Source: a virus (Duplodnaviria; Heunggongvirae; Uroviricota; Caudoviricetes). From it: DNA of 64,000 nt. The stretch's first letter is position 1. The number at the start of each line of letters is the position of its first letter. Below are positions 1 through 64,000 of the stretch, piece by piece. Below the pieces are notes generated by a model. It was not told where the DNA came from, ran no database searches, and saw only the letters and a list, made by a program, of their open reading frames with translations. A program made the position numbers and the translations under genes. The stretch lies in IMG/VR virus record IMGVR_UViG_3300031418_000001. One strand, 5' to 3'.

Positions 1-157
1 TACTATATGACTCAAGTAGGTACGGTGATAGTGCATTATTAGCTACTTCCTGTATGTTTAGGGTATTAAAATACATTAAAAACCCAAAAACAGCACAAGA
101 GAACGCAACCAATATGCGATTCAATAGCTTTATCTGCTTAACTGTATACCAGATCAT
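1..157 (-). CDS. Partial membrane protein (runs off the window start)
   Basis: ATG at 157 on the minus strand with AGGAG RBS at 166-170; MIWYTVKQIKLLNRILVAFSCAVFGFLMYF has a hydrophobic segment. Confidence 0.55.
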   Translation of the reverse strand, partial: MIWYTVKQIKLLNRILVAFSCAVFGFLMYFNTLNIQEVANNALSPYLLESYS

Positions 158-169
158 ACTTATAACTCC

Positions 170-874
170 TTAGAAAGATATGTAATATCCGGTATCCCCT
201 GCGACACTTTTTGCAAGCTCAGTAAATTCTAAAATTTCATTAGCGTCTTTAGGAACTGTATCAAATATAACTGATACATAACCTACAACTCTTGTTGAAA
301 TTACAGGAACGGAAACAACATATCTTGCACCATCCATGTATAAAGAATTTAAATTTACAGGTGATAGGTATTCATCTCTTACTTCGCTGCCAGGTTTTAA
401 GTACTCTGTCAAAACTTGTTTAAGATCTGCGGTAAAAATCTTACCTTTTAATATTAAACGCATTTGAGCAGATAGAGCACTAATAGGCAACCATTTGATA
501 TTGTACTTATTGGGATTGATTTTTGAATTAAGTTGAGCACCACTTGTAACCAGAATACGACCTTGATAAAACGTATCATGATCTGGTACGAACTTGTACA
601 CTGCGATCATACATATACGTTGGTTAATATCCATATACGAACGTGCAGATTGTTGTATATTGTCAATATTCTCCTTAGATATATTTAAGTCTTTTGGAAT
701 ATAATATTCAGTTCTTGTAGCATTTTCCACACTTACATGAACAAAAGTACTTATACTATCTTTGGTTATAAAAAGAACATACGCTAATACAGCAATTAAC
801 GCAACCAAAATAATTTTGGTATTAGTTACTTGTGAGGCAAATTCAAGGGCTTTTGTAATAATTGTATCGAACAT
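170..874 (-). CDS. Putative holin (T4 gpT-like topology) or other single-pass membrane protein
   Basis: 234 aa, one N-terminal TM helix (IILVALIAVLAYVLFI), soluble domain ending YVVSVPV..GYVSVIF (GAF-like); size and topology resemble T4 T. Confidence 0.45.
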   Translation of the reverse strand: MFDTIITKALEFASQVTNTKIILVALIAVLAYVLFITKDSISTFVHVSVENATRTEYYIPKDLNISKENIDNIQQSARSYMDINQRICMIAVYKFVPDHDTFYQGRILVTSGAQLNSKINPNKYNIKWLPISALSAQMRLILKGKIFTADLKQVLTEYLKPGSEVRDEYLSPVNLNSLYMDGARYVVSVPVISTRVVGYVSVIFDTVPKDANEILEFTELAKSVAGDTGYYISF

Positions 875-959
875 GACCTTATATCCTCTGTCTTATTTTT
901 ATAATAATATTTACCCAAAAGAGTATATTTATTAAGGTACTTGTAAGATAAATCTTATG

Positions 960-988
960 TGAAACAAAAACAATTTGTGTGCTATACT
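960..988 (+). promoter_or_regulatory. Phage promoter motif TGAAAC-N16/17-TATACT (copy 1 of at least 12)
   Basis: tgaaacaaaaacaatttgtgtgctatact; also at 8332, 15035, 16430, 34029, 37643, 38439, 44164, 53220, 57553, 57817, 63898, each upstream of a gene or RNA. Confidence 0.85.
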
Positions 989-1002
989 AAAGGAAACGAA
1001 AA

Positions 1003-1494
1003 ATGGCAAAAATGATTCTTTGTACTGATGAGAATAACGGTCTTGGGTATAAAAATACAATTCCGTGGCATAGTAAAGATGATTTCCAGCATTTTAAAAA
1101 TAGTACTATTGATTCTATTGTTGTTATGGGATTCAATACGTGGAAATCATTGCCTAAGCGACCACTGCCAAGCCGTTTAAATGTAGTACTTGTAAGTCGT
1201 CCATATATGGAGCGTCCTGATACAGAATATGGTATGAATGCTATTTTTCTTCCACAGGATAATCTGAAAGATATAATCAATAATAATCCAGAATGTATTA
1301 TCATCGGTGGTTACTGGACATACTTACAAGCTAAGCCATTTGTTAATGAAATAATTAAAAGTACTGTAATAGGTATTTATGATTCAGATGTGTTTTTTGA
1401 TATTAAAAAAGAATGTCCTGATTTTCAGGTTCAACATTCAAAAGTACTCAATGATGGAACATTAGTGGAGTACTATTTAAAAAAGGGAAGTTAA
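1003..1494 (+). CDS. frd: Dihydrofolate reductase
   Basis: GLGYKNTIPWH..DDFQHFK, VVMGFNTWKSLP.RPLP.RLNVV, IIGG and D.FF DHFR motifs. Confidence 0.95.
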   Translation: MAKMILCTDENNGLGYKNTIPWHSKDDFQHFKNSTIDSIVVMGFNTWKSLPKRPLPSRLNVVLVSRPYMERPDTEYGMNAIFLPQDNLKDIINNNPECIIIGGYWTYLQAKPFVNEIIKSTVIGIYDSDVFFDIKKECPDFQVQHSKVLNDGTLVEYYLKKGS

Positions 1495-1500
1495 GAAATA

Positions 1501-1959
1501 ATGTATAAAGTTTACACTGATGGTTCATGTTTGGGTAATCCTGGCAGCGGCGGTGTTGGTATTGTTATTGTTAAAGATGATGTTATCGTTGAGGAATTAT
1601 CCTACGGTGAACCACAGACTACAAATAACATTATGGAATTAACTGCCGCTATATCTGGTATTCTCTATATTCGTGAGCATTATACGGAAAGCGAGACAAT
1701 TGAAATTCTAACTGATTCAGACTATGTAGTTAAAGGCTGTAATGAGTGGATGGAAGGTTGGATTAAAAGAAACTGGAAGAATGTCAAAAATGTAGAACTT
1801 TGGCGTTTAATGGAATCCAGTAAAAAGAACTGCAAATTCTCTTGGGTTAGAGGACATGCAGATGATGTATATAATATAGTTGCCGATAAGTTAGCAAGGA
1901 CTGCTGCTGAACAAACTAAAAAGGATTTTAATAATGGCAAAACTAAAACTAACGGATGA
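1501..1959 (+). CDS. rnhA: Ribonuclease HI
   Basis: [41 protein letters not shown] motifs. Confidence 0.95.
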
Positions 1960-62631: not shown

Positions 62632-62704
62632 GGGATAATAGCTCAGTTGGTAGAGCATCTGATTGAAGATCAGAGTGTCGGGGGTTCGACTCCCTCTTAT
62701 CCCA
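62632..62704 (+). tRNA. tRNA-Phe(GAA)
   Basis: GGGATAA/TTATCCC-A, tctga-ttGAAga-tcaga. Confidence 0.92.
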
Positions 62705-62892
62705 CAAACAGAACGAATGTATCCAGCACTGATAAAACTTATAGTGTGGTGTAGTGAACCCGTGTATGCAGTGTAGCTTTAATATAATTAAGCAGTTACG
62801 TTTCCATTGCTTAGAGATCACACCTCTAAGTACTCACTATGGATAAAAAAAGCAGTACTAATATCTTTGGATAGGGTGTTAGTACTAACTTT

Positions 62893-62965
62893 GGGTTGTT
62901 AGCTCAGTTGGTAGAGCAAGATACTTTTAATATCGAGGTCACAGGTTCAAGCCCTGTACAGCCCA
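62893..62965 (+). tRNA. tRNA-Lys(TTT)
   Basis: GGGTTGT/ACAGCCC-A, gata-ctTTTaa-tatc. Confidence 0.92.
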
Positions 62966-62993
62966 CAAACTATAATAAATTGAGTACCAAATA

Positions 62994-63482
62994 ATGAATT
63001 CATCAGAAATTAAACAATTCAAAGTTGCTTTGAAAATGTTTTATGATAATCCTGAACGATTGAATAAACTTTATACTTTAAACCAGTTGAAGTTGTGTAA
63101 ATCTGGCACATTTGTTCTTTCACATATTTTATCAGATTCAGTTGATAAAATTGATAAAGAGATAATGAGCGATAGTGTCATTTTGGCTTTAGAAATCCAC
63201 GAACATGAAATGTATTTAAGAACAGTTATTACTGGTGATTTCTATAATGAATTACGTCAGAGATACCTTAGAGTACTGAATGTCAGAGCCATGAATAATG
63301 AAAATAATCCAACATCATCAAGTCATTTAGTATGGATGTTATTACAATTAGGTTCTGGTGAAATGTCTGAAACCAAGAAACATCGTTGGTTAGGATATAT
63401 TCAGGGTTGTATGGTAATGAAGAATTTTATTACTGTACAAGAAGAAAGAGATTTGACACGTGGTGTTTTCAACGGAAAATAA
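62994..63482 (+). CDS. Hypothetical protein
   Basis: 162 aa; C-terminal HLVWML...KKHRWLGYIQG. Confidence 0.7.
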   Translation: MNSSEIKQFKVALKMFYDNPERLNKLYTLNQLKLCKSGTFVLSHILSDSVDKIDKEIMSDSVILALEIHEHEMYLRTVITGDFYNELRQRYLRVLNVRAMNNENNPTSSSHLVWMLLQLGSGEMSETKKHRWLGYIQGCMVMKNFITVQEERDLTRGVFNGK

Positions 63483-63483
63483 A

Positions 63484-63891
63484 ATGAATACTTTAATTGA
63501 TAGTTGGATGAAGAATGTGAAAACTTATCCACCTGCTGAGATTTTCTTTGAGAAGTACGGTAAAGACGCAAAAGCTGAAGAACGTATTAAAACAGTGTGT
63601 GAAGAAGTATATCGCTTCTGCTTCCCTGAAAGTACAAAGAATCCATTAGGTGATCTTGGTGCGTCCTATCGTGAATTAGAAGTAGCGTATAAAATTGGTT
63701 TTGAAGGTATGAAACCGGAGTATATTACAAAGGTTAAAGATGCTTTCTTGGAAGATGCTAAGTATGCAGTTAAAGCACTTGACGAATTATTCAAGAAAGA
63801 CCAGATTCTTCAACAATATTATTCTTCCTGGAAAATTAAGTACCAAGATATTAGTACTGAAGTTTATAATATGACTAAAAATTATATTTAA
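63484..63891 (+). CDS. Hypothetical protein
   Basis: 135-aa ORF. Confidence 0.65.
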   Translation: MNTLIDSWMKNVKTYPPAEIFFEKYGKDAKAEERIKTVCEEVYRFCFPESTKNPLGDLGASYRELEVAYKIGFEGMKPEYITKVKDAFLEDAKYAVKALDELFKKDQILQQYYSSWKIKYQDISTEVYNMTKNYI

Positions 63892-63949
63892 AAAATGTGA
63901 AACAAATACAAATTATGTCCTATACTTATAGTATAAGATAAAGAAATAC

Positions 63950-64000
63950 GGTTCCATCGTTTAGCGGCTATGATACTCCCCTGTCACGGGAGAGACGCGG
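63950..64000 (+). tRNA. tRNA-Asp(GTC), truncated by the window end
   Basis: GGTTCCA start, ctccc-ctGTCac-gggag; promoter motif at 63898. Confidence 0.85.

Follow-up and report, generated by a model that had tools for sequence, protein, structure and literature searches.

The hexamer palindrome AGTACT is about tenfold over-represented in a 64,000-nucleotide stretch of the tailed-phage record IMGVR_UViG_3300031418_000001 (IMG/VR; Caudoviricetes), the whole of which is called the window below. A preliminary description, made from the letters alone, had estimated this over-representation from a few stretches, and the full count bore it out: the word recurs across the whole window, with 221 copies against about 20 expected. 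We read AGTACT as a positively selected word on unmodified phage double-stranded DNA, and most likely as the site recognised by a sequence-specific DNA-binding factor that is dyad-symmetric and probably dimeric, a reading in which our confidence and our doubt are about evenly balanced. Collinearity and gene content show the window to be a piece of the replication module of a RaK2/CBB-like jumbo myophage, whose nearest relative on record is the Xanthomonas phage XaC1. The two are collinear (a quarter of a 12-kb probe aligned, at 75% identity), and more distant collinearity was found with CBB, GAP32, XbC2, Serratia BF and others.

Abundance of AGTACT in the window

The 221 sites were spread evenly along the window: each 4 kb contained 10-19 of them, and their spacing averaged 288 bp (coefficient of variation, 0.85). 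Dinucleotide-preserving shuffles gave 19.3±4.8 copies, with 31 in the highest shuffle. Markov models of orders 0, 1, 2, 3 and 4 predicted 21.5, 19.8, 47.3, 110.3 and 208.5 copies, respectively, and AGTACT was the top-enriched hexamer of the window at orders 0-2. The order 4 control is circular, because it is fitted on pentamers that mostly derive from AGTACT itself: the hexamer accounts for 221 of 373 AGTAC pentamers and for 221 of 351 GTACT pentamers (~60%). The core GTAC was enriched 3.1-fold (628 copies versus 201 expected). One-base variants at the outer positions (NGTACT, AGTACN) were enriched 2.0-4.8-fold, and those at the inner positions were found at 0.67-2.25 times expectation, mostly 0.7-1.5; none of these near-cognate words was strongly depleted in the window. 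When the phasing of GTAC was examined in helical, codon and 100-400 bp bands, no peak rose above noise.

Short palindromes are normally purged from phage genomes. This avoidance, given in the preliminary description as usual for phages, holds in the window too, where 31 of the 64 hexamer palindromes are missing. CTAG was absent (201 copies expected), as was GCGC (55 expected). AGTACT is itself a restriction site (ScaI); submitted to the same test of restriction-site avoidance, it was not under-represented but 10-fold enriched. GCGC is at zero in all five of the enriched relatives introduced below. XaC1 retains CTAG at 0.47 times expectation, so the CTAG purge is specific to the phage of the window, and it may reflect the restriction systems of the host of this phage. 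The tetramer TGCA stood at 0.29 times expectation in XbC2, but at 1.4-1.7 in the window, XaC1, CBB and RaK2.

Coding sequences were analyzed on the 120 genes called in the window. They contain 187 of the AGTACT sites, the other 34 being intergenic, which corresponds to 3.3 sites per kb of coding and 4.3 per kb of non-coding DNA. The word had been said to occur in all three reading frames and in genes of both strands, and this is the case: sites in plus-strand genes were distributed over the frames as 72/34/78, and minus-strand genes hold three sites. Shuffling of synonymous codons, which keeps both the proteins and the codon usage, left 41.8±5.8 coding copies, and shuffling of codon order 24.2±5.0, versus the 187 observed. 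Among genes of at least 450 nt, 40 of 44 carry AGTACT and none is significantly empty. The excess is strong enough to raise the frequency of the dipeptides that the word encodes: in the window proteins Ser-Thr was found at 1.88 and Val-Leu at 1.43 times expectation, versus 0.88 for both Thr-Ser and Leu-Val, and 74 of the 130 Ser-Thr pairs are spelled AGT-ACT where 20 were expected. An action of the excess at the DNA level, as first proposed, is supported by its independence of frame, its presence between genes and the symmetry of its flanks, and by its persistence under controls for codons, amino acids and lower-order k-mers, the loss of which the preliminary description had named as refuting it. 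AGT is the commonest serine codon of the window (31%), a share inflated by the AGT-ACT form of the word. A tRNA-Ser with anticodon ACU, cognate to AGU, is encoded at 37682-37771; A34 anticodons are unusual in bacteria.

Relatives, early promoters and gene context

Whole records were compared by setting the count of AGTACT against that of the reversed control word. The excess recurred in the relatives, as the preliminary description had proposed to verify: the counts were 1356/130 in XaC1, 1235/187 in CBB, 1105/186 in XbC2, 937/142 in RaK2 and 903/134 in 121Q, that is 6.6-10.4 times the control word. No enrichment was seen in T4 (29/51), Atu_ph07 (25/82) or PA5oct (15/40). The excess is a shared character of the core RaK2-like clade and is not found in the nearest sequenced outgroups; it strongly marks, by composition, both this clade and the genes recently acquired within it. 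The hosts of the enriched phages are Klebsiella, E. coli, Pectobacterium and Xanthomonas. Neither the e14 prophage nor the whole E. coli K-12 chromosome displayed an excess of this type. The 8-bp form CAGTACTG occurs 78 times in the 4.64 Mb of E. coli K-12 (control word, 60) versus 247 times in the 346 kb of RaK2, and is thus ~40 times denser on the phage DNA.

The flanks of the word are dyad-symmetric, with the extended consensus T-N-[A/C]-AGTACT-[T/G]-N-A. In the six genomes compared, T is favoured at -3 and C or A at -1, where G is disfavoured in all (0.33-0.72-fold); the G..C flank pair accounts for 0-2% of the sites. In RaK2, CAGTACTG is the dominant 8-mer, with 247 copies against 2.9 expected, while in the window AAGTACTT (53 copies, 23-fold) outnumbers CAGTACTG (19 copies, 30-fold). 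The preference for C at -1 decreases gradually from 3.08-fold in RaK2 to 2.65 in 121Q, 2.02 in XbC2, 1.75 in CBB, 1.40 in XaC1 and 1.38 in the window, where A at this position reaches 1.42-fold. The preference therefore drifts by phage lineage, from C..G in RaK2 to A..T in the window, and it is alike in two Mimasviruses whose hosts belong to different orders. A graded drift of this kind is typical of a co-evolving DNA-binding protein.

Two known sites were compared with these flanks. The SlmA-binding site of E. coli is a 12-bp palindrome, GTGAGTACTCAC, with G..C around an AGTACT core. It was rejected, as no copy (0) occurs in the window, in XaC1 or in RaK2, and of all flanks G..C is the one most avoided. 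A resemblance of CAGTACTG to the LexA half-site fails in the lineage of the window, where the flanks are A..T.

We followed the fate of individual sites in codon alignments. Between the window and XaC1, 34% of AGTACT sites were kept in place, while hexamers overall reached 12.7%; for CBB and XbC2, 18-21% of sites were kept, versus 8.7% of hexamers overall. The sites are thus conserved 2-3 times above average hexamers, and most of them are nevertheless lineage-specific. Between CBB and XbC2 (75.6% identity), 43 sites were shared, 53 were private to CBB and 55 to XbC2. One-step differences between these two phages affected all three dyad positions, with a ratio of transitions to transversions of 16:19 versus 4270:5252 in the background. 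Vsr-like repair of one mismatch type would not produce such a pattern; the density of AGTACT is maintained while its positions turn over through the ordinary mutation spectrum. Selection acts on this density, about one copy per 290 bp throughout the genome of every member of the core RaK2-like clade, rather than on individual positions.

AGTACT density is 2-3 times higher in the early-gene regions of relatives (0-40 kb in XaC1, 220-250 kb in RaK2); compared with the genome average, the coding density of these regions is 1.6-2 times and the non-coding density 3-4 times higher. Pairs of AGTACT 20-21 bp apart correspond there to promoters of sigma70 type, of the form AGTAC-TTGACA-N-AGTACT-G-TATAAT. 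AGTACT is the top hexamer adjoining the -10 element in RaK2 (11 of 50), 121Q (15 of 63) and CBB (20 of 53), and was found 0 times in this position in PA5oct, Atu_ph07 and T4. The early promoters of XaC1 read AGTACC-TTGCAA-N10-GGTACT-t-TATAAT-GTACTT, in which two inverted boxes are joined by a third GTAC at the start site. In these relatives the sigma70-type early promoters thus have GTAC-core boxes in fixed places, immediately next to their -35 and -10 elements. About a dozen near-identical early promoters, attaaaAGTACC-TTGCAA-N10-GGTACTt-TATAAT-GTACTTa, with three fixed GTAC cores, were seen in XaC1 at 4119-20267.

Promoters with two AGTACT boxes were met in two other groups of viral contigs. 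In the first group just 1 of the 5-10 consensus promoters of a locus was of this kind, in the second it was the sole consensus promoter of each locus; these cases probably reflect ascertainment by the search pattern. When contigs were searched for three consecutive CAGTACTG, the hits were local repeat arrays of unrelated nature in Actinomycetota, Bacteroidota and Planctomycetota, and only one of the loci found, of 3.7 kb, was densely populated (39 sites). In one Porphyromonas pasteri genome, three copies of CAGTACTG are packed into about 50-55 bp at each of seven separate loci, pointing to a dispersed family of repeats that carries this 8-mer.

The window encodes DHFR, RNase H, a Dda-type helicase, T4-type topoisomerase II subunits, a clamp loader, TerD and TelA, which place it in the replication module, as well as a split Pol III alpha fragment and 15 tRNA genes. 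The seven kinds of gene named first all contain AGTACT, except those of RNase H and TerD. Most intergenic sites are found within hairpins that flank tRNA genes, or next to them, and in one terminator, where AGTACT at 8306 forms part of the 5' arm and pairs with GTACT of the 3' arm. The positions first quoted for the two clusters were all correct (400, 746, 1102, 1185, 1360, 1443 and 1469; 50018, 50033, 50194 and 50302). Of five intergenic hairpins announced with them, two are strong (8306; 58243/58259) and two weak (61327/61346; 62854/62881), and no hairpin was found at 62078. The features are as follows.

1..64000, no strand: dispersed AGTACT array, 221 sites, mean spacing 288 bp
400..1474, no strand: first AGTACT cluster, 7 sites within or next to the DHFR gene and the minus-strand gene before it
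1003-1491: DHFR gene (Pfam)
8292..8332, + strand: terminator-type hairpin followed by a T-run, dG -18.7 kcal/mol, z -6.4
8397..11790, + strand: genes of the T4-type topoisomerase II large and medium subunits (Pfam)
50018..50307, no strand: second AGTACT cluster, 4 sites
58235..58272, + strand: hairpin formed by the mutually pairing AGTACT at 58243 and 58259, directly 3' of tRNA-Cys, dG -17.1, z -5.5
61327..61351, + strand: weak hairpin with AGTACT at 61327 and 61346, directly 3' of tRNA-Asn, dG -7.0, z -2.2
62849..62892, + strand: weak hairpin with AGTACT at 62854 and 62881, directly 5' of tRNA-Lys, dG -18.7 (76-nt stretch), z -2.1

TerD (25612-26196) and TelA (27262-28344), of tellurite-resistance type, belong to the neighbourhood of the replication module, as in XaC1 and CBB. 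At 56650-56731 ARAGORN predicted a tRNA-like gene whose anticodon has four bases (gaga); it could be a frameshift-suppressor-type or a degenerate tRNA.

Candidate readers and alternative explanations

If AGTACT is a protein site, an abundant factor, more likely encoded by the phage than by its host, would bind the GTAC-core boxes. At early promoters this factor would occlude or tune the host RNA polymerase, and elsewhere on the genome it would coat or mark the phage DNA; compaction, protection and discrimination from host DNA are candidate purposes of such genome-wide binding. We searched for the factor among proteins restricted to the clade. There are 86 RaK2 proteins with a homologue in XaC1 and none in PA5oct, Atu_ph07 or T4, of which 68 are also present in 121Q and CBB, and most of these 68 were covered by Pfam and PHROGs scans. 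The set includes a sigma70-family factor, a Dam-type enzyme, an EndoVII-like protein, an HNH protein, small basic virion proteins and many proteins without any family. Three of its members combine a treble-clef zinc finger with CapR-homology repeats, and two of the three also have a T5orf172 domain; CapR itself derives from a homing endonuclease that was domesticated and now serves as a site-specific repressor (PMC8096241). A basic protein of 194 aa encoded beside the sigma gene resembles only uncharacterised viral clusters. Besides the three CapR-type proteins and a 130-aa virion protein, the candidates are encoded in RaK2 at 186033-186617, 187599-188072, 16768-17046, 17278-17517 and 313554-314117.

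A nuclease of NucA/EndoG type was considered as a partner that would need self-discrimination, and rejected, being missing from 121Q and CBB. This Serratia NucA/EndoG-type non-specific endonuclease is encoded in RaK2-type Klebsiella phages (11210-11887 of the RaK2 locus L037) and at 324034-324642 of XaC1.

Several points weigh against a binding factor. The scans of most of the 68 clade-specific proteins revealed no classical sequence-specific dimeric DNA binder, and the one candidate that was modelled, a basic virion protein of 130 aa, gave a low-confidence, all-beta AlphaFold structure (pLDDT 52). The window is without an early region, and its 3 promoter-like matches carry no AGTACT box; the promoter part of the reading therefore rests on the relatives. 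Finally, selection on the word and biased gene conversion are hard to tell apart from sequence alone. The preliminary description had called for a DNA-binding protein of AGTACT to be sought, and none can be named beyond the candidates in the clade-specific set. Its suggestion of a binding site for a genome-organising or packaging protein stands in part: a protein site is the best remaining reading, while no binder was found and nothing specific to packaging appeared.

The reader could instead be a component of the host, for instance a nucleoid-associated protein, the RNA polymerase holoenzyme, or a nuclease of defence or repair that AGTACT would titrate or block; the phage would exploit or evade this component by enriching the word. 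The boxes of the early promoters, used by unmodified host polymerase before any phage gene expression, and the failure to find a phage reader both speak for this possibility. It is unlikely in our view, since with hosts in Klebsiella, E. coli, Pectobacterium and Xanthomonas the component would need to be conserved across Enterobacterales and Xanthomonadales, whereas related jumbo phages of other proteobacteria (PA5oct, Atu_ph07) have no excess. The similar flanks of the two Mimasviruses from different host orders also argue against it, and the one known host site with an AGTACT core, that of SlmA, never occurs in the form GTGAGTACTCAC, its G..C flank being the most avoided.

An extension of the preferred reading, in which an abundant dimeric factor binds AGTACT, is that the word would serve as a self-label instead of a base modification, the factor telling phage from host DNA and shutting off the early promoters bracketed by AGTACT. 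We consider this extension a doubtful one; if true, it would couple the marking of the genome to the switch from early to middle transcription.

A drive of the kind proposed by Elhai for the cyanobacterial highly iterated palindrome HIP1, in which a GTAC or AGTACT methyltransferase together with mismatch repair converts near-cognates into a word that is itself without benefit, appeared quite improbable. As in HIP1 (PMC4390886), outer one-base variants are enriched 2-5-fold and inner ones are mostly at 0.7-1.5, and the EndoVII-like and HNH proteins are clade-specific. However, PF05869 (phage Dam type) was the only DNA methyltransferase family common to all five enriched genomes: PF00145 (C5) was not in XaC1, PF01555 was only in CBB and PF02086 was nowhere. 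XaC1, the densest AGTACT genome, is thus without a C5 or beta-class enzyme, and, the Dam type aside, this five-genome inventory gave no candidate for a methyltransferase specific for AGTACT or its core, as a HIP-type system would have. A nanopore comparison of native and amplified DNA from two clade members, Hallingskeid and Mimasvirus Kaldavass, reported modified GATC and CCWGG, with TGCAT in addition in Kaldavass, a close relative of XbC2; the modified motifs were as many as the predicted methyltransferases, and AGTACT was not listed (PMC11780129). The papers describing RaK2 and CBB mention methyltransferases and RpoD-like promoters, and not AGTACT.

AGTACT is apparently unmethylated in the clade, and a cognate methyltransferase as its partner is ruled against by the family inventory and the published methylome. 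Such a drive is disfavoured because no cognate enzyme was found beyond the phage Dam type and because AGTACT is missing from the methylome. It would also have to accommodate a turnover at all positions, with transitions and transversions at the background ratio, and the lack of any strongly depleted near-cognate word. The methylation- or repair-driven mutation bias offered at the outset as an alternative origin, and the cognate methyltransferase to be searched for with it, are therefore not supported.

AGTACT might also be a preferred site of a type II topoisomerase (A^GTAC^T), of phage T4 type or the host gyrase or topo IV, which would ease the untangling of a 350-kb genome. Type II topoisomerases usually cut with a 4-bp stagger, which suits the geometry of the dyad, and phage topoisomerase II genes are present at 8397-11790. 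We find this very improbable: mapped gyrase sites are long and degenerate, with no sharp hexamer (PMC6379681), T4, PA5oct and Atu_ph07 have no excess, and the fixed promoter positions are left unexplained. Slightly less credible still is a signal of RNA or translation, either an AGUACU motif of transcripts or a codon-pair preference backed by phage tRNAs. Nearly all genes lie on one strand, the palindrome reads alike in every transcript and the tRNA-Ser (ACU) is cognate to AGU, but this account is largely refuted by the use of three frames (72/34/78) and the higher non-coding density; furthermore, an RNA signal has no need of dyad-symmetric flanks, and the promoter boxes precede the points where transcription starts. 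The idea that the excess merely follows from base composition, from codon usage or from the loss of other palindromes is refuted and practically without credence, as the excess goes only at Markov order 4 (208.5 expected) and the controls for codons, amino acids and lower-order k-mers, as proposed in the preliminary description (orders 0-3, dinucleotide, synonymous and codon-order), leave it at 2-11-fold with z of at least 10 (187 versus 42±6 after synonymous shuffling), while relatives of similar GC content and codon use (PA5oct, 33% GC; T4) do not have it.

Comparison with known systems

This phage purges about half of the hexamer palindromes, yet pays a protein-coding cost for one, which reaches about 1,000 or more copies per genome in sequenced relatives. 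The upkeep of such a word would imply an undescribed DNA-reading system in well-sampled therapeutic and plant-associated jumbo phages (RaK2, 121Q, CBB, XaC1). A full-text literature search for AGTACT with 'phage' returned no published description of the excess. New here are the excess of the XaC1 lineage with its A..T flanks, the graded flank drift and the avoidance of G..C, as well as the unbiased turnover spectrum, the methyltransferase inventory, the three-box XaC1 promoter and the list of clade-specific candidates.

T4 marks its own DNA with hydroxymethylcytosine, in combination with Alc and nucleases attacking host DNA. AGTACT resembles this mark as a feature that distinguishes phage from host DNA along the whole length of the genome. 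It would differ in being a sequence word with no modified base; no enzyme using the distinction is known, and the NucA-type nuclease of RaK2 and XaC1 is not shared by 121Q and CBB.

SlmA is a dimeric nucleoid protein with a few dozen sites per bacterial chromosome. Its site, like that considered here, is a dyad of ~12 bp with the same AGTACT centre, scattered over the replicon and read by a dimer. The exact GTGAGTACTCAC is absent, however, and G..C is the flank least used among AGTACT sites, which number ~1000 per 350 kb against the few dozen SlmA sites of a chromosome.

Homing-endonuclease-type proteins usually read long asymmetric sites. Operators overlapping the -35 and -10 elements of phage promoters, and repressors derived from nucleases, are documented, as for PLE CapR and the autorepression of I-TevI (PMC8096241). 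Similarly, RaK2, 121Q, CBB and XaC1 have dyad boxes in pairs, about two helical turns from each other, right beside the -35 and -10 elements, and the clade has its own proteins with CapR-type zinc-finger and T5orf172 domains. Unlike such operators, ~85% of AGTACT sites (187 of 221 in the window) are inside genes, far from promoters.

The closest known phenomenon is HIP1 (GCGATCGC) together with the alternate highly iterated palindromes found in cyanobacteria (Elhai 2015, PMC4390886; Xu, Lawrence and Durand 2018, PMC5861425). For HIP1 a periodic distribution of 10-90 kb has been reported. AGTACT differs in being an AT-rich word of 6-8 bp, in phage genomes that purge other palindromes, in having no cognate methyltransferase found and no modification reported, and in being built into the architecture of early promoters. 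Like HIP1, it is a short palindrome hyper-abundant genome-wide, both in and between genes, its sites are conserved above background, which implies selection (Xu et al. 2018), and its one-base deviations are biased to the first and last nucleotides (Elhai 2015). In both cases the preferred word shifts between lineages. The AGTACT phages provide a small, genetically tractable counterpart to the 30-year-old puzzle of HIP1.

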